Shown piece by piece: positions 4,340 to 44,726 of a DNA stretch of 44,927 nucleotides. Where the stretch lies: positions 1 to 44,927 of the forward strand of contig MFKJ01000023.1 of assembly GCA_001779535.1 (NCBI GenBank). The letters run 5' to 3'. The position numbers were made by a program, and so were the translations under genes. Within the stretch, counting starts at the first letter, position 1, and the number at the start of each line of letters is the position of its first letter. The notes beneath the pieces are model-generated. The model was not told the origin of the DNA and made no database searches. It saw nothing but the letters and a program-made list of their open reading frames with translations. Origin of the DNA: Candidatus Jorgensenbacteria bacterium RIFCSPHIGHO2_02_FULL_45_20 (GTDB taxonomy: Bacteria; Patescibacteriota; Minisyncoccia; UBA6257; GWB1-50-10).

Positions 4340-4486
4340 TTATTGGCGAAAAGAAGCGACTGGTCTTTTCCAATTAAATAGACAACAAAGAAATTTTTTA
4401 GTTGTCCCAATTTATTTTTTTTGAGGATTTGATCCTGGTCCAGGATGAACGTTGGCGGCGTGGATAAGGCATGCAAGTCGAACGGG

Positions 4487-4552
4487 CCAGTGCGTAGCAC
4501 TGGAATGACGATCCGCCGGTTGGCGGATGGAAATTCCACTGCTATGCAGTGG
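4487..4552 (+). repeat. Family-A three-hairpin module, short form, in the 16S helix-6/V1 position
   Basis: ccagtgcgtagcactgg-aatgac-gatccgccggttggcggat-ggaaattcc-actgctatgcagtgg. It matches 20781-20846 in the 23S at 64 of 66 nt. Confidence 0.85.
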
Positions 4553-4643
4553 CTAGTGGCAAACGAGCTAGTAACACCTTGGTACCTACCTCCGAGATGG
4601 GAATAATCTTGCGAAAGCAGGACTAATACCCAATGGCGCCATA

Positions 4644-4790
4644 CGCATCTCACTAAGGTGAGATGCGAATTCGAAATTTAAAATTTGAAATTCGAAATGA
4701 ATGAATCAATTATAAAATTGAATAATTAAAAATTCATTAAAAATTTCAAACTAAAAATTAAAAATTCGCACAGAACTTTAGTGAGGTGCG
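4644..4790 (+). repeat. Family-B insertion in 16S (V2 region), conserved termini and AT-rich core
   Basis: Starts CGCATCTCACTAAGGTGAGATGCGAAT and ends AAAATTCGCACAGAACTTTAGTGAGGTGCG. The same termini bound 20097-20199 in the 23S, and they interrupt an otherwise alignable 16S sequence. Confidence 0.8.
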
Positions 4791-5048
4791 GGTGGCTAAA
4801 GGTTCGCAAGAACCGCTCGGTGATGGGCCTAGGTCCGATCAGCTAGTTGGTAGGGTAACGGCCTACCAAGGCTACGACCGGTAGGGGAGGTGAGAGCCTG
4901 TTCCCCAGCGAGGAAACTGAGACACGGTTCCTACTCCTACGGGAGGCAGCAGTCGAGAATATTCCACAATGGGCGAAAGCCTGATGGAGCGACGCCGCGT
5001 GCAGGATGAAGCTTTTCGGAGTGTAAACTGCTTTTCTAAGGGAAGAAG

Positions 5049-5178
5049 CCGGTGCTTCGCACTGGAATGACGAATTTAGAATTTCGATTGAATTTCAGAA
5101 TGTTTTAAAAATTAACTCATTCAAGAATTCATTTAAAATTCAAAATTAAAAATTGGAAATTCCAATGCGGAGCATTGG
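5049..5178 (+). repeat. Family-A module, long form (AT-rich filler replaces hairpin 2), in the 16S helix-17/V3 position
   Basis: H1 is ccggtgcttcgcactgg, followed by aatgac, about 90 nt of AT-rich filler starting gaatttagaatttcga, then ggaaattcc and H3 ccaatgcggagcattgg. Confidence 0.8.
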
Positions 5179-5205
5179 TTGACGGTACTTTAGGAATAAG
5201 TCACT

Positions 5206-5245
<40 letters not shown>

Positions 5246-5489
5246 AAACGTTATCCGGATTTATTGGGCGTAAAGGGCGCGTAGGGGGCGCAGGCAAGTC
5301 CGTAGTTAAATCTCGGGGCTCAACTCCGAAACCGCTACGGAAACTACCGCGCTAGAGGACGTTAGAGGTAGATGGAACGCACGGTGTAGGGGTGAAATCC
5401 GTTGATATCGTGCGGAACACCAAAGGCGAAGGCATTCTACTGGGACGTTCCTGACCCTGAGGCGCGAAAGCGTGGGGAGCAAAAAGGAT

Positions 5490-6115
5490 TAAGTGTTTTT
5501 GTTTTATATTCACAAATAATTCTTCGTTTGTTATAAACCGGAATAATTTTTATTTTTCGTTTTCACGAAAAATATTGAACTCAACCCCTCGACGAGCTCG
5601 GGGGATTCAAACAGCAATATTTTTCTAACTTCAAATAAAAATTATTACGCGATTTATGAAACAAATTCAGAAAATATTTGTTCAATAAAACAAAAACCCA
5701 CCTGAGGGTAGGTGGAAAATAGTCCCTCCGCCGATTGGCGGAGATAACTCAGCTATATGCTGGAACACCCGAGTATCCAACGATACCGAAAGGTAAAAAT
5801 GCGTTGGTGCGGGCAATCAGCAGGGAAGTCGTAATTGACCCCTCAGAGACTATACGCAGAGCCCGTTGCGGAGCAACGGAATTACGAATTTAGAATTTCG
5901 AATTTTGGTTGAGCATCCAATTAAAAATTTGAAATTAAAAATTAGGAATTCCGCGCTTTGCGCGGTGAAGATATAGTCCGACCTCCGTGGCGACACGGAG
6001 AGATGAACAGAAATGATTCATCCCGCGACAATGTTTGTAATTTTGATTTTGAATTTGTTTTAAAATTTGAAATTAAAAATTAAAAATTGCACTTTGTCGC
6101 GAAGCAACAAACGTG
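5490..6115 (+). ncRNA. Group I intron in 16S at E. coli position 788, with no ORF
   Basis: It splits the universal GGAT|TAGATACCC. The 5' exon ends in U and the insert ends in G. The core strings TCAGAGACTATACGC and GAAGATATAGTCCGACCTCCGTGGCGACACGGAGAGATGAAC closely parallel the Tetrahymena LSU intron strings ACAGACUAAAUGUC and AAGAUAUAGUCGGACCUCUCC...GGAUGAAG (P7/P9 region). Confidence 0.8.
5863..5965 (+). repeat. Family-A module, long form, nested in the group I intron at the predicted P8 position
   Basis: H1 ccgttgcggagcaacgg is identical to the H1 at 21610-21626. It is followed by aattac, filler starting gaatttagaatttcga, ggaattcc, and H3 ccgcgctttgcgcgg. Confidence 0.75.
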
Positions 6116-6475
6116 TAGATACCCTTGTAGTCCACGCCCTAAACGATGTTCACTAGCTGTTTCGAGTATCGACCCTCGGGGTGGCGTAGCTAACGCGTTA
6201 AGTGAACCGCCTGGGAAGTACGAGCGCAAGCTTAAAACTCAAAGGAATAGACGGGGACTCGCACAAGCGGTGTGGTATGTGGTTTAATTCGATGGTAAAC
6301 GAGAAACCTCACCAGGGCTTGAAATCCCGACGAAGACAGTCCGAAAGGATTGTTGTCCGCAAGGACGGCGGGACAGGTGCTGCATGGTTGCCGTCAGCTC
6401 GTGCCGTGAGGCGTTCCCTTAAGTGGGGTAACGAGCGCAACCCCTATCCGGTGTTACAAGTGTCACCGGAAACCG

Positions 6476-6524
6476 CCCCCTCTTTTGCATCCGACGTTTT
6501 GTATGTCGGAATCAAAAGAGGGGG
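6476..6524 (+). other. Extended hairpin replacing the short 16S hairpin upstream of GGAGGAAGG
   Basis: CCCCCTCTTTTG...CAAAAGAGGGGG (12-bp stem) encloses an inner CCGAC/GTCGG hairpin. E. coli has only about 14 nt here (CCAGTGATAAACTGG). Confidence 0.7.
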
Positions 6525-6885
6525 AGGAAGGCGGGGATGACGTCAAATCAGCATGGCCCTTTGATGCCCTGGGCTACACACATGCTACAATGGCGGATAC
6601 AATGGGAAGCCAAGCCGTAAGGCGGAGCTAATCCCATCAAAGTCCGCCCCAGTTCGGATTGAGGGCTGCAACTCGCCCTCATGAAGCCGGAATCGCTAGT
6701 AATCGCGGATCAGAACGCCGCGGTGAATACGTTCTCGAGTCCTGTACTCACCGCCCGTCAAACCAAGGGAGCCGGGAGTGGGTGAAGCCCCCTCTTTAGA
6801 GGGTGTTAGCTCAAGTTCGGTGACACGGGTTAAGTCGTAACAAGGCACGGGTAGCGGAAGCTGTTCGTGGATCAATTAATTTTGT

Positions 6886-6920
6886 CGATTGCAAATCGCT
6901 GGAAGCAATTCGCTTTTTTT
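6886..6920 (+). terminator. Possible intrinsic terminator after the 16S
   Basis: Imperfect stem CGATTGC...GCAATTCG followed by CTTTTTTT. Confidence 0.35.
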
Positions 6921-7069
6921 CCGCCTTTATAAGTTAAGGCAAGAATGGCGGATAGCTTCAAGCGAGCTGCATTTGTCGCGCTGAAAAACAAGCGCAAAAA
7001 ACAGAGATGCCGTACTCTTAAAAAACGGCGCATAATTGGGGCAACTAAAAAGTTTCTTTAAAGAATATT

Positions 7070-7444
7070 ATGAAAATTCTACTCGTGGAAGACGAACCGC
7101 TTCTCGGTAACCTGCTTCGCGAGCGGCTCGCGCGGGAGGGTTTTGACGTAACACACGCGAAAAACGGCGAAGAAGGATTCGAATTATTGAAAAAATCCGT
7201 ACCGGATTTGGTGCTTCTTGACATTATTCTGCCGAAAATGTCCGGTTTTGAGTTTATGGAAAAAGTCAGAACTGATTCGGAACTCCAATCCGCTCCGCCT
7301 ATAGTGATTATCTCTAACTTAGGGCAGGACGGAGATATAGAGCGTGGGCAAGAATTGGGGGCTGTGGGGTATTTCATAAAAGCCAAGATTTCGATGGAGG
7401 ACTTGGTTTCAAAAATAAAGGAATATATGTTCCCCGCTACATAA
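7070..7444 (+). CDS. Stand-alone response-regulator receiver (CheY-like)
   Basis: 124 aa: MKILLVEDEP..., DLVLLDIILPKMSGFE, and the conserved K in YFIKA. Confidence 0.9.
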   Translation: MKILLVEDEPLLGNLLRERLAREGFDVTHAKNGEEGFELLKKSVPDLVLLDIILPKMSGFEFMEKVRTDSELQSAPPIVIISNLGQDGDIERGQELGAVGYFIKAKISMEDLVSKIKEYMFPAT

Positions 7445-7447
7445 AAG

Positions 7448-7456
7448 TTATCCACA
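7448..7456 (+). promoter_or_regulatory. Exact TTATCCACA (DnaA-box consensus) within the palindrome ATCCACAGTGGAT, upstream of pilin 1
   Basis: Read directly from the sequence. TATAAT follows at about 7485. Confidence 0.5.
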
Positions 7457-7527
7457 GTGGATTCTACACAGATATATATATATTGTATAATTGAACTAAT
7501 AAATAAAAGTCAAAACATTTAAATAAT

Positions 7528-8091
7528 ATGCACTCACAGGCAAAAAAAGGTTTTACCCTTATCGAGCTTTTGGTCGTTATCGCCATTCTCGCGGTTTTGG
7601 CAACCGCCATAGTCGTTATTTTGAATCCGTCCCAACTGTTAAAACAGAGTAGGGATTCAACGAGATTGTCCGATTTAGCGGCCTTAAACAGCGCTATAGC
7701 TTTATATCTTGCCGATTACGCAAGCGCGGCTTTTACTTCATCCACAAAATGCACGGGGAACATTAATCCGTCAGGTATCGCATGCGCTGGCAATGTTTCA
7801 ACATCAACGGTTGTTACCGGTACGGGATGGGTTACTATTGATTTTACTGACATCTCTTCCGGTTCTCCTTTAGCGCGTCTGCCGCTCGACCCGGTTAATA
7901 ACGATACATACGCGTACGCTTTTAAGAGCACCGCGTCTCCAACAAACACTTTTGAAATAGACGCGAGGATGGAAAGCTCAAAATATTCTTCGACGACACC
8001 GGCTTCAAGTATGACTGTAAATACCAAAGACGGCGGCAACGACGATGACTTTTACGAGATAGGAAACGATCCTGGGTTGGACTTGGAGTAA
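7528..8091 (+). CDS. Type IV pilin-like protein (prepilin N-terminal cleavage/methylation domain)
   Basis: MHSQAKKG|FTLIELLVVIAILAVLA is the class III signal peptide followed by the hydrophobic helix. Confidence 0.9.
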   Translation: MHSQAKKGFTLIELLVVIAILAVLATAIVVILNPSQLLKQSRDSTRLSDLAALNSAIALYLADYASAAFTSSTKCTGNINPSGIACAGNVSTSTVVTGTGWVTIDFTDISSGSPLARLPLDPVNNDTYAYAFKSTASPTNTFEIDARMESSKYSSTTPASSMTVNTKDGGNDDDFYEIGNDPGLDLE

Positions 8092-8124
8092 TATTTTCGG
8101 TATGTAAATAACAAAAAAGCGTTG

Positions 8125-8133
8125 TTATCCACA
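8125..8133 (+). promoter_or_regulatory. Exact TTATCCACA upstream of pilin 2; it sits in the loop of an AAAAAAGCG/CGCTTTTTT hairpin
   Basis: Read directly. TATAAT at 8155-8160 lies 6 nt upstream of the ATG at 8167. Confidence 0.5.
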
Positions 8134-8166
8134 GCGCTTTTTTGTTATTTCTGCTATAATAAGAGA

Positions 8167-8718
8167 ATGCAAGCATACAAAAAGGGTTTTACCCTTATTG
8201 AGCTTTTGGTCGTTATCGCCATTCTCGCGGTTTTGGCAACCGCGGTTGTCGTAATTCTTAATCCTGCCGAGCTTGTAAAACAAGGGAGGGATTCTACGAG
8301 AATTTCAGACCTTGCCGCGCTCCACAGCGCGATAGCGCTTTATCTATCGGATGTAAACGGAGCAAGTATAACATCGACAGAAACATGCACGGCGGCTCTT
8401 TCAAGCCCGCCGACTAACTTTACATGCGGAAGCATTTCAACCTCAACCGTTGTTACGGGTACCGGGTGGGCACCAATCGATTTTACTGATATCTCTTCCG
8501 GTTCTCCTTTAGCGCGTCTGCCGCTCGACCCGGTGAATGATACGACTTACGCGTATACTTTTCAGGGCGGTTCATTGAATACTTTTGAAATAGACGCGAA
8601 TATGGAAAGTACTAAATACGCGAGTGGAGGCGGAGGTGATGTTGAATCCAATAACAAAGACGGCGGCAATGATGACACATATTACGAAATAGGCAACGAC
8701 CCCGGGCTTGATTTGTAG
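8167..8718 (+). CDS. Type IV pilin-like protein, paralogue of 7528-8091 (ORF opens at 8122; ATG at 8167 gives a normal leader)
   Basis: MQAYKKG|FTLIELLVVIAILAVLA. It shares near-identical blocks with the first pilin. Confidence 0.9.
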   Translation: MQAYKKGFTLIELLVVIAILAVLATAVVVILNPAELVKQGRDSTRISDLAALHSAIALYLSDVNGASITSTETCTAALSSPPTNFTCGSISTSTVVTGTGWAPIDFTDISSGSPLARLPLDPVNDTTYAYTFQGGSLNTFEIDANMESTKYASGGGGDVESNNKDGGNDDTYYEIGNDPGLDL

Positions 8719-11281: not shown

Positions 11282-12493
11282 ATGCAATTTCATTGCGTAG
11301 CGTCCCAACAGGATGGAAAAATAATCGAGAGTGATATAGATGCCCGAGGAGTAGAAGAAGTGCTTGCCGTTTTAAGCGCGCGCGGTCTTCATCCCGTGAG
11401 CATCAAACTCGCGACGACCGCAAAAGGAAGAATGGATAGGAAAATTTTCGGCGGGAACATAACCCTTACTGACCAGGTATTTATATCAAAATATCTGGCT
11501 CTTATGCTTAAAATAGGCACCGGTTTACTGCAGGCAATTAACATTCTGATTGATGACTTTAGTAAACCATCGGTCCATTCTTTTTTGGTGGAGGTAAAGA
11601 CGAATCTTGAAAAAGGCATGCAATTCTATTACGCGTTCGCGCGCCATCCTAAAATATTCAGCCAGGTTTACATAAATTCCATAAAGGCGGGAGAAACGTC
11701 CGGCAATCTTGAATCGGTTTTTGATGACCTTGCCGTTTCCCTGTCTAAAGAAAAGGCGTTGCGCGACCAGATAAAGAGCGCTCTTTTTTATCCGGTTATA
11801 TTGTTTGTGATGTCCATACTCATTCTTGTTTTCCTTGTTATGTTTGCTCTTCCGAAAATAGCCGGTGTGTTTTCCGAAAGCGGTTTCGACCCGCCCATTT
11901 TTTCAAAAGTGGTATTCGCCGTAGGTTTTTTCTTCGGCGACTACGGATTATGGATACTTCTTGCGGGCATAATCTGCTTTGCTGTTTTATTTGTTGGTTA
12001 TAGGACGTCACTCGTTTTCAAAAAATTTATTTTAAGCATTCTTTTTAATCTGCCGCTCGTACGCGACGTAGTGAAGAAGATTTCGATACAGCGTTTTGCG
12101 GCAACGCTTTCGTCGCTTATCAAGGCCGGGATGCAGATTACGGATGCTCTCGAAATAACGGCGGATTCAATAACCCAGATAGAATTAAAGGAGGCGCTTA
12201 TAAGAATTTCGAAAGAAGGAATCGCGAAAGGACTCACGGTCGGGGAGGCGTTCAAGCGCGAGCCGTTTTTCCCGAAAACAGTCGTTAATTTGGTGGCTAT
12301 ATCCGAACGGGCAGGGCATATAGAAGAGGTTTTGCAGACGCTCGCGGATTTTTACACAAGCGAAATAGACAGTTCTCTTAAAACCCTCGTTTCATTCCTT
12401 GAACCGATTCTTCTCATGGGCATAGGCCTTGTTATAGGCCTTATCGCTCTCGCTATCGTTGTTCCGATTTACCAACTAACCATACAGTTTTAG
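11282..12493 (+). CDS. pilC: Type IV pilus platform protein (GspF/PilC family); ORF opens at 11129 but family homology begins near the ATG at 11282
   Basis: Two T2SSF repeats (KAGETSGNLESVF..., ERAGHIEEVL...) and three transmembrane segments. Confidence 0.9.
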   Translation: MQFHCVASQQDGKIIESDIDARGVEEVLAVLSARGLHPVSIKLATTAKGRMDRKIFGGNITLTDQVFISKYLALMLKIGTGLLQAINILIDDFSKPSVHSFLVEVKTNLEKGMQFYYAFARHPKIFSQVYINSIKAGETSGNLESVFDDLAVSLSKEKALRDQIKSALFYPVILFVMSILILVFLVMFALPKIAGVFSESGFDPPIFSKVVFAVGFFFGDYGLWILLAGIICFAVLFVGYRTSLVFKKFILSILFNLPLVRDVVKKISIQRFAATLSSLIKAGMQITDALEITADSITQIELKEALIRISKEGIAKGLTVGEAFKREPFFPKTVVNLVAISERAGHIEEVLQTLADFYTSEIDSSLKTLVSFLEPILLMGIGLVIGLIALAIVVPIYQLTIQF

Positions 12494-12556
12494 AAAATTC
12501 GAATGTTGAATCAGAAATCTTAATATAGGATTTTTCAACTAAATAATTTTTATACA

Positions 12557-13672
12557 TTGATTCAAAATTCAATCCGCCGACTGGCGGACAAAATTCAAAA
12601 TTCGCGGGAGGCCTTCACGCTCATAGAGCTTATTATCACCGTAGCAGTCGGAGCCGTTTTGACGACCGGAGGTTATGTTATGTTGTCGAGCTATCGCAAC
12701 AGCCAGAATCTGAAACTTACTTTGAATGAGTTCTCGGCGGCGTTACGCGACACGCAGAAAAGAGCGATTACGCAGGAAAACGGCAAACAATGGGGCATAC
12801 GTTTGACTAACGACACAAGCGGCATATATCAGGTATGGAGCGGACAAAGTTTTGCTTCGGGAACTGTGGATCAGACATACGCGCTTAAAAGAAATATTTC
12901 TTTCGGCAACCCGTCGGCAGGGAGTACGATTGATATAATTTTTGAAGCGTTAAGTGGGAAATTAAGCGAGAAAAAAGTGATTACCGTTTATGCCGGAAAT
13001 AGCGGCGCGGATACCGGCGACTTGGTTCTGAATACGTTAGGAAAAACAACCGTGCGGACGGATAAGTATTTTTTAAGCTATTGGCACTTTGATGAAGGAA
13101 CAAGCACAGTCGCTTACGATGCATCAGGCAACGGAAATAGTTCAATTTTATATAATAGTCCATTGTGGCAATCGGGGAGTAGCTGTATAGCCGGCGGATG
13201 TCTGAACTTAAACGGTATGAGCCAGTATTTGAACGCAAGTTCGACAAATATGACAAGTGTAGATAGTTTTACGGTTGCCGGATGGACGTATTTAACCGAC
13301 GTGACGACCACTAATAATACTCTTTATGGCAATTCCGGTACGGTCGAGTTACTTACAAAACCGACAGGATATTATTTTGGCGTATGGGTTGACGGTGTTG
13401 AATATTCAAAACAGGGGACGACCAGTTCGAATATAAACAGCTGGGTTCATTGGGCGCTTACGCGTTCAGACAGCTCGATAGTTGTTTACAGAAATGGCAT
13501 CTCAATTGATTCAAGAAATGATTTGCCGGCAGGAAGCGTCGACGTAAGTGGTTATATCGGAGCGCAAGGAGGTACGAGCTATTATCTTGAAGGAAATTTG
13601 GATGAGCTGCGCGTTTACGGCCGCGCTTTGTCCGCGCAGGAAATTTTAGATATGTACAATGATTTGAAATAA
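12557..13672 (+). CDS. Pseudopilin-like protein with a LamG/concanavalin-A-like domain (TTG start as in the ORF track; exact start uncertain)
   Basis: N-terminal AFTLIELIITVAVGAVL, then WHFDEGTSTVAYDASGNGN... and LDELRVYGRALSAQEI, typical of LamG_3 domains. Confidence 0.8.
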   Translation: MIQNSIRRLADKIQNSREAFTLIELIITVAVGAVLTTGGYVMLSSYRNSQNLKLTLNEFSAALRDTQKRAITQENGKQWGIRLTNDTSGIYQVWSGQSFASGTVDQTYALKRNISFGNPSAGSTIDIIFEALSGKLSEKKVITVYAGNSGADTGDLVLNTLGKTTVRTDKYFLSYWHFDEGTSTVAYDASGNGNSSILYNSPLWQSGSSCIAGGCLNLNGMSQYLNASSTNMTSVDSFTVAGWTYLTDVTTTNNTLYGNSGTVELLTKPTGYYFGVWVDGVEYSKQGTTSSNINSWVHWALTRSDSSIVVYRNGISIDSRNDLPAGSVDVSGYIGAQGGTSYYLEGNLDELRVYGRALSAQEILDMYNDLK

Positions 13673-19744: not shown

Positions 19745-20096
19745 CATAATTACGAATTAGAAATGGATAAAAACGTCAAATATTACGCGGGCGGTTCGTC
19801 CTAAGTAAGCGTTTTTAGAACGCACCGGTCCGCCTCTAACGGCGGAATTTTTTTATCGTTTCGGAGAATCGACTGATGTTTTATAAATAAATAGCGAAAT
19901 CAGTTTTTTGAGGTAGAAATTATATCCGCTTGTTTTTATGGGAAGAAGCACGTAAGGGTGGATGGAGGATGCCTTGGCATTAAATGGCGACGAAGGACGC
20001 GGCGTAGCGGCGATACTCTTCGGGTAGGTGCGTAGCAACCTGTGATCCGGAGATGTCCGAATGGGGAAACCCTCTGCGGAAAACCCGCAGAACCGG

Positions 20097-20199
20097 CGCA
20101 TCTCACTAAGGCGAGATGCGAATGATTAAATTTTTATTTTTGTAATTTTATAAATAGAATTTCAAATTGAAAATTCGCATAGAACTTTAGTGAGGTGCG
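20097..20199 (+). repeat. Family-B insertion in 23S domain I
   Basis: Starts CGCATCTCACTAAGGCGAGATGCGAAT and ends AAAATTCGCATAGAACTTTAGTGAGGTGCG. The termini are near-identical to those at 4644-4790. Confidence 0.8.
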
Positions 20200-20254
20200 T
20201 TGGAGCGCACCTGGTGAAGTGAAACATCTCAGTAACCAGAGGAAAATAAAACAA

Positions 20255-20316
20255 GTCGTGCCTCACTTTTGTTCGGCACTCGATTTTATCGGTGGCGAGC
20301 AAGAGCGAGGCACGAA
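20255..20316 (+). other. Unclassified ~62-nt hairpin insertion in the 23S
   Basis: It interrupts GGAAAATAAAACAA | GAAAGATTCCCTGAGTAGCGGCGAGCG. The closing stem is GTGCCTC/GAGGCAC. Confidence 0.65.
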
Positions 20317-20317
20317 A

Positions 20318-20348
<31 letters not shown>

Positions 20349-20362
20349 GAAGCCTAAACCAG

Positions 20363-20428
20363 CCGACGCATAGCATCGGAACGACGATCCGCCAGCTGGC
20401 GGATTGAAATTCCGCTGCTATGTAGCGG
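20363..20428 (+). repeat. Family-A module, short form, in the 23S
   Basis: ccgacgcatagcatcgg-aacgac-gatccgccagctggcggat-tgaaattcc-gctgctatgtagcgg. Confidence 0.8.
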
Positions 20429-20675
20429 GTGGGGTTGCAAGGCAGGAAAAATTTTGCGTTTCGCGTAGGACTTCGCAAGAATAATTGCGCGAATCGCGAA
20501 AGTTGGTTACAAATCAGCTTGGTTAGCCGAAGTTATTGGAACGTAACACCAAAGAGGGCGAACGTCCCGTAGGCGAAAACCATGCGACCAATTTTTTTCT
20601 GTTCTTAAGTACCTCGAGGCCAAAATACCACGAGGGAAGCCGGGAGTACTATCTCCCAAGGCTAAATACATTTAA

Positions 20676-20718
<43 letters not shown>

Positions 20719-20780
20719 GCCCTGTTAGGGCGATGAAATAGTACCTGAAACCATCCACTTACAAAGAACCGGAGCACTGA

Positions 20781-20846
20781 CCAGTGCGTAGCACTGGAAT
20801 GACGATCCGCCAGCTGGCGGATGGAAATTCCACTGCTATGCAGTGG
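20781..20846 (+). repeat. Family-A module, short form, in the 23S
   Basis: Identical to the 16S copy at 4487-4552 except for the hairpin-2 loop (AGCT versus GGTT). Confidence 0.85.
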
Positions 20847-20952
20847 CGTGTGACGGTGTGCCTATTGAAGAATGAGCCAACGAGTTTATTTATATTGCGT
20901 GTCTAAGTCCGAGAAGGACGGAGGCGTAGGGAAACCGAGTGTTAATAGCGCG

Positions 20953-21100
20953 TATCGTGTCTCACCATCGTTCAGCACACGCTGATCTATGCCAATTGAG
21001 CCAATGATTAATGTGGATTATGTTGAAATGCATATCCGTATAAATCATTCTCAAGTCCGTGTTAATCCGTATCAGTGCCGAACGGTAGCGAGACACGATA
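20953..21100 (+). other. Unclassified ~148-nt long-hairpin insertion in the 23S
   Basis: The 11-bp closing stem TATCGTGTCTC/GAGACACGATA interrupts ...GTTAATAGCGCG | AGCAGTATGAATAAGACCCGAAACC. Confidence 0.7.
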
Positions 21101-21609
21101 AGCAGTATGAATAAGACCCGAAACCAGACGAGCTTGCCCTGGCCAGGGTGAAGTCCCGCGAAGGCGGGATGGAGGCCCGAACCGGTTGGTTGTTCAACAC
21201 CTTCGGATGAGTTGGGGTAAGGAGTGAAAAGCTAATCGAGTTTGGTAATAGCTGGTTCTCTCCGAAATAGTTTTAGGACTAGCGTCGGAATAAGATTCTC
21301 GGGGGTAGAGCACTGGATGATCGTGAAAGGGAGAAATCTCGCGCGATCAATCAAACTCCGAATACCGAGATATTGTTTTCCGGCAGTCAGACTACGGGGG
21401 CTAAGCTCCGTGGTCGCGAGGGGAAGAGCCCAGATCGCCGTCTAAGGTCCCCAAGTCCATGCTAAGTGTTAAAGGTGGTCGCGTTCCATAAACAGATAGG
21501 AGGTTGGCTTAGAGGTAGCCATCCTTTAAAGAGTGTGTAACAACTCACTATTCGAGGAATGCGGCGCCGAAAATTTATCGGGGCTCAAGCATGGCACCGA
21601 AGACGCGGA

Positions 21610-21781
21610 CCGTTGCGGAGCAACGGAAGCTCCAAATTCCAGATTCCAAATTCTAAATAAATTCTAAATTCTAATTTTCAAATATCAAAACGAATAATTG
21701 TTTTGGTCATTTGAATTTTGTGCTTTGATATTGTTTAGGACTTGGTGTTTGGTGCTTGGGATTTCCGTCGCTTCGCGACGG
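21610..21781 (+). repeat. Family-A module, long form, at the 23S helix near E. coli ~1170
   Basis: H1 ccgttgcggagcaacgg, then AT-rich filler with AAATTC repeats (the inverse of GAATTTAGAATTT), then gggatttcc and H3 ccgtcgcttcgcgacgg. Confidence 0.75.
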
Positions 21782-22452
21782 TGGTAGGAGAGCATTCCAT
21801 GAGCACTGAAGCAGAACCCGTGAGGGGCTGTGGAGCGCATGGAAGAGAGAATGTTGGCATTAGTAATCGCAATCCCGATGAAAACTCGGGACCCCGAAAA
21901 TCCAAGGTTTCCTCCGCAACGAAAATCGACGGAGGGTAAGGCGGCCCTAAGGCAATGGCGAAAGCCGCAGCCGATGGACAGCCGGTTAATATTCCGGCCC
22001 TCCCGCTTTTTTTCGATGAAGTGACGAAGCAAAGTAGATTGAACGTCTTAATGGTTTGATGTTTTTGACCGAGTGTGGGTGCTAGGCAAATCCGGCATCC
22101 TGGATTCAATTCCGAACATCAGGGTAGAAACGAGGTAGGGTTTTTTGCCTTGCCAAGTCAATCGAGCTTGTTTCCGAGAAAAGCTTCTAGAGCTAAAAAA
22201 GTGGGATCCGTACCGTAAACCGCCACAGGTGGGTGAGGCGAGAAGCCTCAGGGGAACGTGTGAGTCCTCGTTAAGGAACTCGGCAAAAAAGCTAGGCGTA
22301 ACTTTGGGATAAGCCTTGCCAGTGCTTCGCACTGGCCGCAGCTAAAGTATCTCTAGCGACTGTTTACCAAAAACACAGCTCCCTGCGAACTCGTAAGAGG
22401 AAGTATAGGGGGTGACGCCTGACCGATGCGAGAAGGTTAACGATGGGGGTTC

Positions 22453-22518
22453 CCAGTGTGCAGCACTGGAATGACGATCCGCCAGCTGGCGGATGGAAGT
22501 TCCAACGCTGTGCGTTGG
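22453..22518 (+). repeat. Family-A module, short form, in 23S domain IV
   Basis: ccagtgtgcagcactgg-aatgac-gatccgccagctggcggat-ggaagttcc-aacgctgtgcgttgg. Confidence 0.8.
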
Positions 22519-23377
22519 GGGCTCACTGTCCGAAGCCCTCGTCAATGTCCGCGGTAACTATAACCGTGTTAAAGTAGCGCAATTCCTTTCCGGGTAAGTT
22601 CCGGAGCGCATGAAAGGCGTAACGACTGGAGAACTGTCTCAACGAGGAGCTCGATGAACGTGCGATACCCGTGAAGACGCGGGTTACCGGCAGCAAGACG
22701 AAAAGACCCCGGAAGCTTTACTGTAGCTTGATATTGGGAGTAATAGTGTAATGCGTAGCATAGTGGGGAGACTTTGAAAGTTCGCTTTCGGGCGGACCGG
22801 AGTCGCCAGTGAAATACCCATCTTTATATTGTTGCTTTCTAACCCGTACGGCAAAAACGTATGGGGACAGTGTCTGGCGGGCAGTTTTTCTGGGGCGGAA
22901 CCCTCCTAAAAAGTAACGGAGGGGCCTATTATGGTCAGCTTGGCGCGGATGGAAATCGCGCCTAAAGTGCAAACGCAAAAGCTGGCTTGACTGCAAGACT
23001 TACAAGTCGCGCAGGTGCGAAAGCAGAGGTTAGCGACCCGACTATTCTTTATAGAAAGGTAGGAGATAACGGACAAAAGTTACTCCGGGGATAACAGGCT
23101 GGTGTTGTCTGAGCGTCCCTAGCGACGACAACGCTCGGCACCTCGATGTCGGCTCACCACATCCCGGGGGTGGAGAAGCTCCCAAGGGTTTGGCTGTTCG
23201 CCAATTAAAGTGGTACGCGAGCTGGGTTCAAACCGTCGTGAGACAGGTTGGTCTCTATCTGCTGTCGGCGTGGGTGTTTGAGGGAAGTTGGCCCTAGTAC
23301 GAGAGGACCGGGCTGAACGAACCTCTGGTCTATCGGCTTTGCCACCAGGTGAATTGCCGAGTAGCTAAGTTCGGACA

Positions 23378-23411
<34 letters not shown>

Positions 23412-23478
23412 CTCCCAAGATTAAACACTAGTTCCGGGCAACTGGAACAACGCTTCCTGGAAGATTACCAGGTAAAAG

Positions 23479-23553
23479 CCGGTGCGTAGCACCGGAATGA
23501 TGATCTGTTATTAAGTTTGTTGAACAGATGGAAATTCCGTTGCTATGCAACGG
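23479..23553 (+). repeat. Family-A module with a variant hairpin 2, near the 23S 3' end
   Basis: ccggtgcgtagcaccgg-aatgat-gatctgtt...aacagat-ggaaattcc-gttgctatgcaacgg. Confidence 0.8.
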
Positions 23554-23685
23554 CGAATAGGCTCTAGGTGTAAGCGCAGTAATGCGTTCAGCCGAGGAGT
23601 ACTAAAAGTGTTATGTTTTTTCCCATTTCAATAAGCGGTAAAATTTCTATCTCAAAAAGCTGGTTTCGAAAATAAAAATTATTAT

Positions 23686-23819
23686 CAGTGGTTTCCCGGT
23701 GATCTAGCTGTATGTGCTCCACCTTTTCCCATTCCGAACAGAGAAGTGAAAGCATACAGCTCCGATGATACTTATCCCTTCGGGGATCGGGAAAGTAGGA
23801 TTCGCCGGGATACCACTAA
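23686..23819 (+). rRNA. rrf: 5S rRNA
   Basis: CCCATTCCGAACAGAGAAGTGAAAGC...CCGATGATAC...GGGAAAGTAGG. The terminal helix is CAGTGGTTTCCCGG / CCGGGATACCACTA. Confidence 0.85.
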
Positions 23820-23970: not shown

Positions 23971-23988
23971 TTATCCACATTTTATAAT
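23971..23988 (+). promoter_or_regulatory. Exact TTATCCACA immediately upstream of TATAAT, ahead of the ribonucleotide reductase gene
   Basis: TTATCCACAtttTATAAT read directly. Confidence 0.5.
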
Positions 23989-41147: not shown

Positions 41148-42164
41148 TTAGTACGCCGAAAGAACCTTCAAAATATTTTTTGAAAGATTGGCAAACTCCT
41201 CTTTTGATTTCTCGATATTTTCTTTCGTGCCTTGCTGGTTATCGGCTATTAGCGCGGGGTCAATATCAAAAATCGCAACTCCAAGTTCTTGGCACTTAGC
41301 CGGAATCCTGCCATAATCCTGAATTATATTTAATGGGTTTTCCCAGCTCTCCTTTACAAGTCCATTCCGACAATGCTTTTCCGAAAGATAAATGCGTACT
41401 TTTTCTGGAATCTTTTCCATCCACGCGCGATGGTCGGCAATCGGTTGCTTGCCGTAAACATTATATGAATTAACTATGTATCCTATAAAAAGAGGGTCTC
41501 CGGGTAACACCAGTTTTGTTTCGGTGTTGCCTGCCAGCGCTTTGGCGGAATTTCGCCATTGTATTTTCCATTTTTCATAAACAGTTCCTAAATTTTCAAC
41601 ACCTTGAACGCTAAAAGCGTCTGGTATCATTGGCACAGCAAAATAATCCGCCCCGAGTAAAATCATCTGATTCAGCAACCCCAAACTCGGCGAGGTATCA
41701 ATAATAAAAATGTCTATCTGTTCACTCAACCCTTTTTCTCGTAAAAATCGATCAATGGCGCTTGTTTGGAAATACCCGATTGGTTGTCCGGAAGCCGCTT
41801 GCCCATAAGCGGTTGAAAGCAATCCTTCATAGACAGAAAGATTTATATCACCCTTGAGGAGCAGAAGATTTTTATCTGCTTTAACAGGAAGAAGCTTTAC
41901 GGCAAGGTTTATGTCGCTACCGCCCTCAACCACGCCGCGCAAAACATCATATACGGTTTTTTCTGTTTCTGAAAAAAGATTTTTTATATAATATTCTTCA
42001 CCCATAGCCAGACGGGAAAGATTACATTGCGGGTCCAAATCAATAAGAGCGGTTTTGTATCCCTCTTTGGCAAATGAAACGGCGCAATTAAAAGCCAAGG
42101 TCGTCTTGCCGACCCCGCCTTTGTTATTTACAAAAATAAGTTTTTTTGAGCGAGGAAATTTCAT
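41148..42164 (-). CDS. ParA/Soj-like P-loop ATPase, unusually long (338 aa)
   Basis: Deviant Walker A NNKGGVGKTT, and DLDPQCNLS. TATAAT (42172-42177, minus strand) lies 7 nt before the ATG. Confidence 0.8.
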   Translation of the reverse strand: MKFPRSKKLIFVNNKGGVGKTTLAFNCAVSFAKEGYKTALIDLDPQCNLSRLAMGEEYYIKNLFSETEKTVYDVLRGVVEGGSDINLAVKLLPVKADKNLLLLKGDINLSVYEGLLSTAYGQAASGQPIGYFQTSAIDRFLREKGLSEQIDIFIIDTSPSLGLLNQMILLGADYFAVPMIPDAFSVQGVENLGTVYEKWKIQWRNSAKALAGNTETKLVLPGDPLFIGYIVNSYNVYGKQPIADHRAWMEKIPEKVRIYLSEKHCRNGLVKESWENPLNIIQDYGRIPAKCQELGVAIFDIDPALIADNQQGTKENIEKSKEEFANLSKNILKVLSAY

Positions 42165-42268
42165 TGACTACATTATATACAATAATGAATCAGCAGACAA
42201 TAATCGCAATCAAAAAAATCGCTATTCCAAAAAGACACAGTCAATAGTATGGCCGTGCCTGATATTCT

Positions 42269-42277
42269 TGTGGATAA
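42269..42277 (-). promoter_or_regulatory. Exact TTATCCACA (plus strand reads TGTGGATAA) upstream of the LexA-methyltransferase gene
   Basis: Read directly. TATAAT at 42308-42313 lies 6 nt before the ATG at 42320. Confidence 0.5.
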
Positions 42278-42319
42278 CTACCCCTTTCACACTTTCGATT
42301 TACTTTCTATAATATCACT

Positions 42320-43822
42320 ATGGTAACGAAAAGGCAAAAAGAAGTCCTCGATTTTATAACTGATTATCAAGAACGAAAAGGATATGCCCCCTCTCTTGAC
42401 GAAATACGCAAGAAATTAAAACTCTCGTCTGTCTCAACGGCTCATTTTCATGTCTCCAAGCTCCGCGATTTGGGATATTTATCCAAAGAAGAAAATAAAC
42501 CGCGCTCTATTGAAGCGTTTGGCCGCGAGACAATGGTAAAAATTCCTCTTTTGGGAACTATTGCCGCCGGTCAGCCAATAGAGGCAATACAAACTAAAGA
42601 AATGATTGCTGTTCCCAAAAGTAAAATTCCATCTTCGTCAGAAGTTTACGCTCTCCGCGTAGTCGGAAGCAGTATGATTGACGAAAATATAAACGATGGC
42701 GATGTGGTTTTAGTGCGTCAACAAGAAACCGCCGAAAACGGACAAAAAGTGGTGGCTCTCATAGACAATCACGAGGCAACCTTAAAGAAATTCTACAAAG
42801 AGAGGGGGCATATCCGCCTACAACCGGCAAACAAAACTATGGAGCCGCTTATTTTTCGGAATGGACGAGACGTTTTAATTCAAGGTGTTGTACTCGATGT
42901 TATTCGTGATGGCGGTTTTATGTCTCCAGTAGAAGTTTATCCAGACGCAAAGCTTCTTAATCGAGAAAGAAAAGTCAAAGATAGAGAAGCGAAAGAAAGG
43001 GCGCGGGGTGGCACAAAATTTCAAAAAGAAGCTTTTGCGGTTGCGCAAGCAAACGGCATTAAGAAGTTTACAGACAAAATTATATGTGGCGACAGTGAAG
43101 AAGTTTTGCGTAAAATCCCAACTGATTCGATTGATATTATCATTACATCTCCACCGTATAATTTCGGCATAGAATATAAAGACGATAAGAAAAATGATGC
43201 GGTTCGCTGGGACGAGTATTTTAAGAAGATAGACGCAATTTGGAAAGAGTGCGCGCGCGTTCTAAAACCCGGAGGGCGGCTCTGCCTTAATGTGCAGCCA
43301 TTGTTTTCAGATTACATTCCGACACATCATTTGATGTCAAAACAACTACTTAATCACGGGCTAATCTGGAAGGGAGAAATTTTGTGGGAGAAAAATAACT
43401 ATAACTGCAAGTATACTGCATGGGGCAGTTGGAAAAGCCCTAGTATGCCATATCTAAAATACACATGGGAATTTGTTGAAGTTTTCTCAAAAAATACACA
43501 CAAAAAAGCTGGCGACTCGTCAAAAGCCGATATAACAGGCGACGAATTCAAAAAATGGGTTTATGCAAAGTGGTCCATCGCTCCCGAACGAAACATGAAA
43601 GAATATGATCATCCTGCAATGTTTCCAAAGGAGTTAGCAACGCGACTAATGAAACTCTTTAGTTATCAAGACGATATTGTACTTGATCCGTTCAACGGCG
43701 CGGGGACAACCACCCTTTGTGCCGCAGAAACAGGCAGAAAATATATTGGAATAGATATTTCTCCAAAATACTGCAAGATCTCCGAGAAACGAATAAAGAA
43801 AATTCCGGCGAAGTTATTTTAG
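42320..43822 (+). CDS. Fusion protein: complete LexA (wHTH plus S24 autopeptidase) fused to a beta-class N4/N6 DNA methyltransferase
   Basis: Residues 1-198 align along the whole of E. coli LexA: KRQKEVLDFI..., the cleavage site IAAG (A83-G84), the nucleophile GSSM (S118), and the base TLKKF (K156). Residues ~250-500 have motif IV IIITSPPY before motif I DPFNGAGTT (PF01555-type order). Confidence 0.85.
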   Translation: MVTKRQKEVLDFITDYQERKGYAPSLDEIRKKLKLSSVSTAHFHVSKLRDLGYLSKEENKPRSIEAFGRETMVKIPLLGTIAAGQPIEAIQTKEMIAVPKSKIPSSSEVYALRVVGSSMIDENINDGDVVLVRQQETAENGQKVVALIDNHEATLKKFYKERGHIRLQPANKTMEPLIFRNGRDVLIQGVVLDVIRDGGFMSPVEVYPDAKLLNRERKVKDREAKERARGGTKFQKEAFAVAQANGIKKFTDKIICGDSEEVLRKIPTDSIDIIITSPPYNFGIEYKDDKKNDAVRWDEYFKKIDAIWKECARVLKPGGRLCLNVQPLFSDYIPTHHLMSKQLLNHGLIWKGEILWEKNNYNCKYTAWGSWKSPSMPYLKYTWEFVEVFSKNTHKKAGDSSKADITGDEFKKWVYAKWSIAPERNMKEYDHPAMFPKELATRLMKLFSYQDDIVLDPFNGAGTTTLCAAETGRKYIGIDISPKYCKISEKRIKKIPAKLF

Positions 43823-44430
43823 AGATGCTCTTTTAATGCGCGCTCAAAGTATTTGATTGCGTGGTCTAATCTTTCGGGACGAAGTGGTTTATAAAACTGC
43901 TTTTTGTGTATTTCCCCTTTGATGTTTCGTTCTCCATCCAGAATAGTGATGATCTCAATGTCGAGATTTGGAAAATGATGCTCAAGAACTTTGACCGATG
44001 GGCTTCCGTTCGGATGATCAACGGCAATGGAGTAATCGCCGCCAAGCATGCTTTCTAATTGGAAAAGGCAGAATTTGAGTTTTGGAAAATGCTTTTTGAG
44101 CAAAAAGGCATCAACTAATATGCGTTTATACATCGCGACCTCTGCATACGCCTTACACTCAATTGAAAGCACAAATTTATCATCAATATAAACCTGTTTA
44201 TCTTGAGACAGTTTATAGACATTTCCCATTCTATCACTGATGGGATATTTTGTTTTGTTGATTTTGATGCGCGAAGGTTTGCCGCCGATATTTTTCCATA
44301 CGAGTAAAACCATCTCCTCTGCCATCGTCTCAACGAGCGTGCCTTTCAGCGAACGTAAAGTGCCGCCGGCACGAATGCGCCACATTTTTCGTATTGTTCG
44401 CTCGTAAAATTTTATAAATTTATCGAACAT
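43819..44430 (-). CDS. Type II restriction endonuclease candidate (PD-(D/E)xK)
   Basis: 203 aa. IDDKFVLSIECKAY fits D...ExK. It is convergent with the methyltransferase, with overlapping stop codons, and lies directly downstream of a controller-type HTH gene. Confidence 0.6.
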   Translation of the reverse strand: MFDKFIKFYERTIRKMWRIRAGGTLRSLKGTLVETMAEEMVLLVWKNIGGKPSRIKINKTKYPISDRMGNVYKLSQDKQVYIDDKFVLSIECKAYAEVAMYKRILVDAFLLKKHFPKLKFCLFQLESMLGGDYSIAVDHPNGSPSVKVLEHHFPNLDIEIITILDGERNIKGEIHKKQFYKPLRPERLDHAIKYFERALKEHL

Positions 44431-44431
44431 A

Positions 44432-44653
44432 TCATTTCAAAAAGTAATCGGCCGTCTTCTTATAAATTTGTGCGAATTTCTTCATCTCCGCCACATCAAG
44501 CCGTCTTTCCCCGGACTCGATTTTTGAGATATAGGATTGCGGCTTCCCAAGTTTGTCAGCTACCGCCTGCTGGGACAAATCTGCCTCAATACGCGCTCTC
44601 CTCAAGCGTTCTATTATTTCCTTGTAATATTTTGAATAAATTGACTTGCTCAT
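44432..44653 (-). CDS. XRE-family HTH protein, RM controller (C-protein)-like
   Basis: 73 aa with LSQQAVADKLGKPQSYISKIESGERRL. Its stop is 1 nt before the endonuclease ATG. Confidence 0.75.
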   Translation of the reverse strand: MSKSIYSKYYKEIIERLRRARIEADLSQQAVADKLGKPQSYISKIESGERRLDVAEMKKFAQIYKKTADYFLK

Positions 44654-44726
44654 ACTTATTTAATTTGCCCTTGACTCACCGCGCCAGCGCGCGGGCTTCG
44701 GCTTTCTTTTTTGAAAAATTCGGCGG

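Follow-up and report, generated by a model that had tools for sequence, protein, structure and literature searches.

Methylases that control their own synthesis are among the closest described counterparts, in function, of the system reported here. M.SsoII regulates its own restriction–modification (RM) system (PMC6100179), and in methylases of the SsoII type a helix-turn-helix (HTH) domain at the N terminus keeps the methylase gene repressed by binding to an operator located in the promoter region (PMC6100179, PMC3874152). In this study, we describe an RM locus near one end of contig MFKJ01000023.1 (assembly GCA_001779535.1) of Candidatus Jorgensenbacteria bacterium RIFCSPHIGHO2_02_FULL_45_20, the whole 44,927 nucleotides of which, read on the forward strand, we refer to as the window. 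At this locus a complete LexA, autoprotease domain included, forms the N-terminal part of a DNA methyltransferase. Autoregulated methylases and LexA are each of a known kind; the widespread, modular fusion of the two appears to be new, and the best overall explanation is, in our judgement, probably that of an RM system with a self-repressing, damage-inducible LexA–methylase. The fusion gene and the parts of its product are as follows.

42320..43822, + strand: open reading frame (ORF) of the LexA–methyltransferase fusion, 500 aa
42320..42909, + strand: LexA module, aa 1-197, with winged HTH (wHTH), cleavage site and S24 domain; matches in Pfam, NCBIfam and PDB
aa 37-48 of the LexA wHTH: recognition helix SVSTAHFHVSKL
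42566-42571, + strand: Ala83-Gly84 scissile bond, by translation check
42671-42673, + strand: Ser118 of the S24 domain, by translation check
42785-42787, + strand: Lys156 of the S24 domain, by translation check
42910..43822, + strand: beta-class DNA methyltransferase, aa 198-500, stop codon TAG
43148-43159, + strand: motif IV SPPY, aa 277-280, by translation check
43691-43711, + strand: motif I FNGAGTT, aa 458-464, by translation check
aa ~204-250: basic N-terminal extension of the methyltransferase

A preliminary description of this DNA, made from its letters without database searches, had read the 500-aa ORF as an entire LexA followed by a beta-class SPPY methyltransferase, and this reading is borne out by Pfam, by TIGR00498 and by structure alignments. 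LexA_DNA_bind (PF01726) matches residues 3-62 (E 3e-15) and Peptidase_S24 (PF00717) residues 76-191 (E 5e-29), both above the gathering score, and N6_N4_Mtase (PF01555) matches residues 271-490 (E 2e-39) with model positions 1-221 of 221 covered. The NCBIfam 'lexA' equivalog TIGR00498 gives the fusion 185.9 bits against a cut-off of 110.95, and solved LexA structures match its first 200 aa end to end (Thermotoga 3k2z, E 6e-37; E. coli 1jhh, E 1e-22). The cleavage residues pointed out in that description are present, and A83-G84, S118 and K156 align with A84-G85, S119 and K156 of E. coli LexA. In the C-terminal part, motif IV (SPPY) comes before motif I (FNGAGTT), which is the beta-class order, and the PADLOC model MTase_II matches this part with 2.5e-70. 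A PDB search with the methyltransferase returned 2zie as the best match (TTHA0409-type, 'putative modification methylase', 1e-30), further matches being 8s9n and 8s9m ('DNA cytosine-N4 methyltransferase') and then M.PvuII, CcrM and M.RsrI. Because the closest solved relatives include DNA cytosine-N4 methyltransferases, and based on the SPPY motif and the matches to 8s9n, 8s9m and M.PvuII, N4-cytosine is a plausible product of the enzyme, with the adenine enzymes CcrM and RsrI standing among the matches beside those of the N4-cytosine type.

The LexA and methyltransferase parts join at about residue 197. The basic stretch of some 50 residues that follows had been taken for a linker, an assignment which we rejected, since a stand-alone methylase with 79% identity (P0043) begins with this stretch, at the equivalent of aa ~196-204; it is the methylase's own N-terminal extension, and its residues are conserved among methylase orthologues. 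The possibility that two separate genes had been merged by an assembly error was likewise rejected. On five contigs from independent ENA and JGI assemblies the 500-aa sequence is the same throughout, with the same endonuclease gene after it, and the architecture is found in more than 70 species; because five independent assemblies encode the identical protein, the fusion is not an assembly artefact. A full-length AlphaFold2 (AF2) model of the fusion had a mean pLDDT of 60 and was set aside.

The genes on the opposite strand, with the candidate catalytic residues of the first, are the following.

43819..44430, − strand: Type II restriction endonuclease, 203 aa, PD-(D/E)xK fold, convergent with the fusion
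44200-44202, − strand: endonuclease catalytic candidate D77
44158-44160, − strand: endonuclease catalytic candidate E91
44152-44154, − strand: endonuclease catalytic candidate K93
44432..44653, − strand: small, controller-like XRE/HTH_3 regulator of 73 aa; the endonuclease gene follows directly, co-oriented with it

The methyltransferase (M) and endonuclease (R) genes share overlapping stop codons (TTAG), and the earlier proposal of a convergent PD-(D/E)xK endonuclease agrees with PADLOC, with residues D77, E91 and K93 and with the AF2 fold. The endonuclease ORF has no match in Pfam or NCBIfam; however, the PADLOC REase_II model PDLC03499 matches it with an E value of 8.8e-55, and homologues from Kingella kingae, Neisseriaceae and a Zixiibacteriota metagenome-assembled genome (MAG) are labelled 'restriction endonuclease'. 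D77 and E91-x-K93 are invariant in 35 homologues, down to 38% identity. As a sequence-profile search of the PDB gave no match, the enzyme was assigned by a fold search: with an AF2 model built from the homologue alignment (pLDDT 95.6), Foldseek returned first BbvCI subunits (E 4e-5) and then NucC, Bse634I, SgrAI and Cfr10I, all of which are PD-(D/E)xK nucleases. The stop codon of the XRE gene (C) lies 1 nt from the start of R, and its product matches Pfam HTH_3 (8e-16) and is weakly similar to the PADLOC Control_protein model (5e-7) and to C.BclI (6.5e-4). Because the partner gene is a restriction endonuclease by its homologues, PADLOC, motif and fold, the locus is a three-gene Type II RM system made up of a beta-class methyltransferase, a PD-(D/E)xK endonuclease and a controller-like HTH protein. 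This RM identity and the LexA–methyltransferase architecture are, in our view, almost certain. The tetranucleotides GATC (54 observed, 135 expected), GGCC (82 and 145) and CTAG (20 and 52) are depleted in the window, which may reflect restriction pressure by other systems; the attempt to read the target from such avoidance was abandoned, as the depletion cannot be attributed to this system.

The window locus does not stand alone but belongs to a large, modular family found in bacteria of the candidate phyla radiation (CPR). Using peptide patterns specific to this LexA subfamily, the LexA module was compared with one GTDB genome per species; this gave at least 574 relatives, the best 80 loci of which were analysed. 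At least 70 of these 80 are LexA–methyltransferase fusions, nearly all in CPR (Patescibacteria) MAGs, and ORFs of 473-645 aa are found at about 72 of them. LexA_DNA_bind and Peptidase_S24 occur together in 71/71 complete fusions, and the C-terminal part matches N6_N4_Mtase in 61, the Dam-like MethyltransfD12 in 12, the C5 DNA_methylase in 5 and the gamma-class N6_Mtase/Eco57I type in 1 (the counts overlap, as some proteins match more than one model), so that the fusions span four methyltransferase families. A83, G84, S118 and K156 are kept in every orthologue, namely in 71/71 of the GTDB fusions and 76/76 metagenomic fusions, down to about 50% identity. The stop codon of 57 of 70 fusions is directly adjoined by a gene for 150 aa or more, mostly convergent and overlapping by 4 nt; several of these partners match REase_II models, some are second methylases and one is MwoI/SfiI-like. 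Dozens of clusters (formed at 90% identity) that combine the query's three domains, at 52-91% identity, came from a search of 5.8 billion proteins; they are labelled Patescibacteria or Parcubacteria where named. When 1.84 billion representatives were searched with a hidden Markov model (HMM), the top places went to about 45 clusters of fusions (393-890 aa), ahead of ordinary 200-aa LexAs.

Several members of the family differ from the usual arrangement. Five proteins of 760-890 aa (P0266, P0269, P0280, P0290 and P0292) carry the LexA module at the N terminus and may be fusions to larger methylases or combined restriction–modification enzymes. Locus L006 (Ga0315277_10000002, 522.9 kb) has two fusions 4.4 kb apart, at 6001-7524 and 11941-13524, with a NERD-domain gene between them; the second fusion (616 aa) adjoins a gene for an MwoI_N/SfiI-like restriction enzyme. 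The only unfused CPR copy among the best 80 loci, L052 (5001-7981), consists of a 196-aa lexA with the same promoter layout, followed 23 nt later by a 528-aa SPPY methyltransferase and then by a 259-aa gene, which suggests that the fusion arose from, or decays to, a lexA–M operon. The only clearly RM-free copy among the 80, L095, is a high-G+C lexA beside a dinB-like gene and is apparently not from the CPR. Two IMG/VR contigs that are classified as viral encode fusions of 483 aa (L102, 773-2224) and 497 aa (L103, 5001-6494), and in both a direct repeat in inverted orientation lies just downstream of the promoter.

The region upstream of the fusion gene holds three elements.

42269..42277, + strand: exact DnaA-box-like 9-mer TGTGGATAA, 8 nt upstream of the -35 box
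42286..42313, + strand: sigma-70-type promoter, -35 TTCACA, 16-nt spacer, -10 TATAAT
42293..42310, + strand: candidate LexA operator TTTCGATttacTTTCTAT, direct repeat TTTCGAT-ttac-TTTCTAT with an 11-nt period, over the spacer and the -10 box

In a consensus scan this promoter was the best of the region, with 11/12 consensus positions, and 6 nt separate the -10 box from the ATG, for which reason the mRNA is predicted to be leaderless. The direct repeat is the sole site of its kind in the window. Its pattern, TTCKNK-N5-TTCKNK, stands upstream of 50/78 homologous genes, compared with a mean of 0.5 (maximum 3) in shuffled sequences and 1 in an internal coding control; some loci have the repeat in inverted form, immediately past the -10 box, and at either position it would block RNA polymerase. 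The half-site differs among loci, with both copies shifting together, and its bases 4-5 follow residue 43 of the recognition helix, which aligns with Glu45 of E. coli LexA: F, Y or H is paired with TA or GA, Q or E with GG, and K with GC. This protein–DNA covariation is the main evidence from which we conclude that the LexA module would bind the repeat, and the prediction that the repeat is the LexA operator is thereby supported. PMC7739468, which cites a Patescibacteria study, states that direct-repeat recognition by LexA evolved in several lineages and names direct-repeat motifs for Patescibacteria, Verrucomicrobia and Balneolaeota, in agreement with the repeat seen here. Autoregulation of the fusion at this site therefore appears very likely from the comparison of loci. 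Further operators were looked for in the 45-kb window, at the C/R promoter and in 777 kb of DNA flanking related loci, and none was found; two operator-like matches in L065 were rejected, as they lie inside coding regions.

Three versions of this methylase exist: one stands alone, has a co-directional partner and lacks a LexA-type promoter, one is fused to a LexA wHTH without the S24 domain (11 clusters), and one is fused to full LexA. The S24-less fusions retain the 9-mer box and the repeat, whereas the stand-alone methylases have neither, and the operator role predicted for the wHTH from these fusions thus holds without S24. This could be taken to mean that S24 serves as a dimerisation module only, that self-cleavage does not occur in vivo and that the protein is an SsoII-like autoregulated methylase with a different HTH. 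That S24-less variants of the same enzyme keep the operator does point to autoregulation as the core function. However, dimerisation alone would not require cleavage residues, and the Ala-Gly, Ser and Lys positions are invariant in the 71 and 76 fusions and across the four methylase families; we consider the dimerisation-only explanation highly improbable.

In the 200 nt that precede the LexA start, the 80 GTDB loci together hold 44 copies of the exact 9-mer, while elsewhere in 646 kb of related loci there are 9 copies, against 7.8 predicted by composition. Often it directly adjoins the repeat, an example being TGTGGATAAC-TTTCGGT-N4-TTTCGGT, and it is constant across loci while the repeat varies, as expected of the site of a conserved host factor; co-regulation of the fusion by DnaA is nevertheless offered as an idea only. 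We also considered whether TTATCCACA, with four copies in the window, is a general CPR promoter element, and rejected this because in the 646 kb it is confined to LexA promoters. The three further exact copies in the window (7448-7456, 8125-8133 and 23971-23979) lie upstream of two pilin genes and a class II ribonucleotide reductase, and with up to one mismatch the DnaA-box 9-mer occurs 22 times in the window, with 8.7 expected. As to translation starts, GTCAA is found no more than 22 nt ahead of the start codon in 29 of the 80 loci (background 1.6%); 22 others belong to the leaderless type, and a Shine-Dalgarno-like sequence is present in only 4.

Taken together, these features can be placed in a mechanism in which the fusion both modifies the chromosome and senses damage to it. 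The LexA module would dimerise through its S24 domain and bind the direct-repeat operator over the -10 box of its own leaderless promoter, a step for which the comparison of loci speaks, and the methylase would so repress its own synthesis, as methylases of the SsoII type do with their N-terminal HTH. RecA activated on single-stranded DNA would then trigger cleavage at Ala83-Gly84, which would free the DNA-binding domain, de-repress the promoter and raise the output of methylase. Induction would thus fall in the period of DNA repair, or after self-restriction, when unmethylated sites arise. The preserved cleavage apparatus makes such RecA-dependent cleavage and induction a reasonably probable prediction. 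The benefit would be protection of the chromosome whenever repair, recombination or self-restriction creates unmodified sites, which would give Type II systems an equivalent of the 'restriction alleviation' that damage induces in Type I systems; this protective role is proposed more tentatively. To our knowledge, it is poorly understood how Type II RM systems avoid killing the host at unmethylated sites of repair or recombination, and we know of a mechanism for damage-induced restriction alleviation in Type I systems only.

Several observations weigh against the mechanism just outlined. With a single operator and none on the C/R side, only M would respond, which leaves the benefit conjectural. 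The association of residue 43 with the half-site (44:2 against 0:26, 36 distinct combinations, Fisher p 1e-17) ignores phylogeny and is uncorrected for it. The natural S24-less variants indicate that the protease domain is dispensable for the function of M. Neither RecA nor Clp proteases nor other SOS genes are encoded in the 45-kb window, and more M during phage attack would be counter-productive. The HTH_3 domain of the controller gene and its co-orientation upstream of R agree with the controller-type assignment made in the preliminary description, but there is no palindromic C-box upstream of it in the window. Relatives with 84-86% identity in L008 and L012 have a palindrome upstream of C that begins ATCCCAttttGGGAT; the homology of the window gene to these relatives ends 8 nt upstream of its ATG, the palindrome is missing here, and the sequence AGTCAAG lies 22 nt upstream of the window gene (~44675).

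Finally, cleavage could destabilise the methylase instead of raising its output. This would amount to a suicide switch akin to abortive infection: degrons exposed by cleavage would lead to breakdown of the methylase fragment, methylation would cease, and a damaged or infected cell would be killed by its endonuclease. It is known that RM systems can kill once methylation is lost (PMC11324026), and the cleavage apparatus of the fusions is invariant. The N-terminal fragment would end in ...IAA, resembling the ...VAA of E. coli LexA. In E. coli, RecA-stimulated cleavage of LexA exposes degrons, and ClpX is said, after Neher et al. in 2003, to recognise the ...VAA end of the fragment. However, cleavage would also de-repress the promoter, so that synthesis would rise; the fate of the fragment is not predictable from sequence, there are no linked protease genes and there is no sign of a long-lived endonuclease here. 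A suicide switch is therefore given little credence, and induction of a protective methylase is the explanation that we prefer.

How the fusions are put together and spread is best seen from the way in which identity is distributed along the locus. A group of 480-aa proteins is 93-97% identical to the query in the LexA part and only about 35% in the methylase, and proteins with a 73-80% identical methylase have LexA parts that are just 48-57% identical. At the DNA level, window positions 42262-42909, which comprise 58 nt of promoter and LexA codons 1-197, are 90% identical to L011-13 and 85% identical to L008-10; the similarity stops at 42909 and resumes at 44428, and the C gene region (44428-44661) is again 86% and 84% identical to the same two groups, in which it flanks unrelated M–R pairs. 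The 1.5 kb between, which encode the methylase and the endonuclease, have no DNA similarity to L011-13 or L008-10. This break in identity between the promoter–LexA segment and the C gene shows that a conserved regulatory frame brackets exchangeable M–R cores; judged from these alignments, different M–R cores are recombined into a promoter–LexA frame, often with a C gene. Elsewhere, the M–R core of the window also occurs with no C gene beside it. MAGs assigned to Ryanbacteria and Azambacteria contain LexA modules that match the query at 95-96% identity, the whole module there being about 87% identical in DNA to that of the window. The preliminary description had suggested an acquired island on the grounds of base composition. 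Acquisition is better supported by the shuffling of modules and by horizontal spread than by the G+C contrast (0.407 for 41148-44653, 0.488 for the copper operon).

In two related loci, which come from these Ryanbacteria and Azambacteria MAGs, the LexA–M/R/C module and one upstream gene are bracketed by inverted repeats, which are 296 nt long and perfect in L018 (3762-4057 and 7760-8055) and about 280 nt long in L019 (2317-2633 and 7268-7598). A large serine recombinase is encoded just outside the module in L012 (4320-5819), a metagenome contig identical to L018 there. This suggests that the module of L018 and L019 is an invertible or mobile cassette; no such inverted repeats are found around the module in the window.

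The same distribution bears on the question of whether the fusion is the organism's genuine, and possibly only, SOS master repressor, with RM cores inserted in frame at the 3' end of lexA. On this account the fusion would mainly serve a selfish RM element, which would benefit because loss of the RM system would mean loss of LexA; the regulon would extend to repair genes elsewhere, and the dosage of LexA may have been made to follow the needs of the RM system. The LexA module scores above the lexA equivalog threshold and the autoregulated promoter layout is that expected of a lexA gene. Moreover, among the best 80 loci there is only one clearly unlinked stand-alone lexA (L095), even the unfused CPR copy in L052 lies directly upstream of a methylase, and no second lexA of the same genome was found, bar one second fusion. 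On the other hand, LexA modules that are nearly identical across candidate phyla and lie in differing contexts point to horizontal spread together with RM genes, one contig (L006) and one MAG each carry two fusions, and there is no operator outside the fusion promoters in the flanks or the window. In addition, with peptide patterns specific to the subfamily and the best 80 loci, other lexA genes could be missed. Both the role as master repressor and that as servant of a selfish element with a wider regulon appear unlikely to us. What we prefer is still an RM system that contains its own damage-inducible, self-repressing methylase. Extended to the CPR as a whole, this would mean that a large share of LexA proteins are DNA-damage sensors built into RM systems and not classical SOS master regulators, and that a portable chassis, consisting of the DnaA box, the direct-repeat operator and LexA, often with a C gene, takes up M–R cores of any methylase class and couples the self-protection of the genome to DNA damage and to replication status. 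This extension is speculative, and we hold it to be doubtful rather than probable.

The surroundings of the locus are of interest in themselves. Divergent from the fusion is a gene for a ParA/AAA_31-type ATPase (338 aa, 41148-42164, − strand) for which a promoter-like site is present at 42200-42172; no parB-like gene lies next to the ATPase gene, which accompanies the RM system only in contigs of the window type. The contig of L002 continues past the right end of the window, and beyond the C gene (5594-8271) it encodes a NUDIX/Ser_hydrolase protein, a 129-aa protein, a member of the AbiEii toxin family and a 196-aa protein, which places the RM system in a small defence or toxin–antitoxin neighbourhood. 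Farther away, the 16S rRNA gene (4417-6882) is 2466 nt long compared with a model of 1533 nt, a group I intron (5625-6000) lying within it, and the 23S gene (19942-23624) is 3683 nt long compared with a 2925-nt model; positions 23694-23811 were recorded together with them. A distance of 13 kb, in which type IV pilus genes are found, separates the two genes, and there is no tRNA gene in the 45 kb. An intron-bearing 16S gene, a long 23S gene, split rRNA genes and the lack of tRNA genes are hallmarks of CPR genomes.

With respect to novelty, the preliminary description knew of no such architecture, and this still stands: in the full-text literature searched we found no description of a LexA–methyltransferase fusion, with the qualification that a 2017 study of the SOS response in Patescibacteria may mention one. 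LexA is unmentioned in a 2025 review of RM biology, and the fusion is undescribed in a 2013 review of RM regulation, in a 2026 preprint on CPR methyltransferases and in a survey of SOS-associated domain architectures. Databases hold such proteins under generic names only, some in NCBI as 'transcriptional repressor LexA' and some in JGI as 'site-specific DNA-methyltransferase'. CPR bacteria have tiny genomes and few CRISPR systems and rely heavily on RM. If the proposed mechanism is true, a RecA-responsive repressor within a methylase would be a direct molecular link from the SOS signal to DNA modification and would change the view of LexA in CPR bacteria; the hypothesis is testable with a single recombinant protein. 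The pairing of residue 43 with the half-site offers a ready-made specificity code for winged helices of the LexA type, and nature provides, in the conserved frame with its exchangeable M–R cores, a case of a defence system that evolves by modules.

When compared with known systems, the fusion resembles the SsoII-type methylases (M.SsoII, M.Ecl18kI, M.EcoRII, M.MspI and M.ScrFI) in having a DNA-binding HTH at the N terminus of a methyltransferase. However, those enzymes are C5 methylases with a short HTH and no protease, while here a whole LexA with wHTH and S24 autoprotease and a direct-repeat operator is joined to N4/N6, Dam-like, C5 or gamma-class methylases, mostly not C5. The HTH belongs to a different family, and the likeness is a functional analogy and not homology. 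In addition, since M and R are convergent here, one operator cannot serve both promoters. With LexA itself (TIGR00498; S24 family, with UmuD and lambda CI) the N-terminal module shares full-length homology, the cleavage site, the Ser/Lys dyad and, as predicted, an operator at its own promoter; it differs in the 300-aa DNA methyltransferase at the C terminus, in being embedded in an RM operon and in that no regulon beyond its own promoter was found in the window and the 777 kb of related loci. The locus also recalls RM systems with C proteins (PvuII, BamHI, AhdI, Esp1396I, Csp231I and Kpn2I), since the endonuclease gene is directly preceded by a small, co-oriented XRE HTH gene and since related loci have palindromic boxes upstream of C; unlike these systems, the window has no C-box, sister systems with the same M–R core do without a C gene, and the fusion methylase has a separate regulator of its own. 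Damage-induced restriction alleviation has been described for Type I systems (PMC12707154), and the logic proposed here is like that of EcoKI, namely to shield the chromosome from the cell's own enzyme when repair leaves unmodified sites. In the EcoKI system this is brought about by a host protease through ClpXP proteolysis of HsdR, whereas in the present system it would be brought about by SOS-type induction of the methylase through a sensor that is built into the enzyme.

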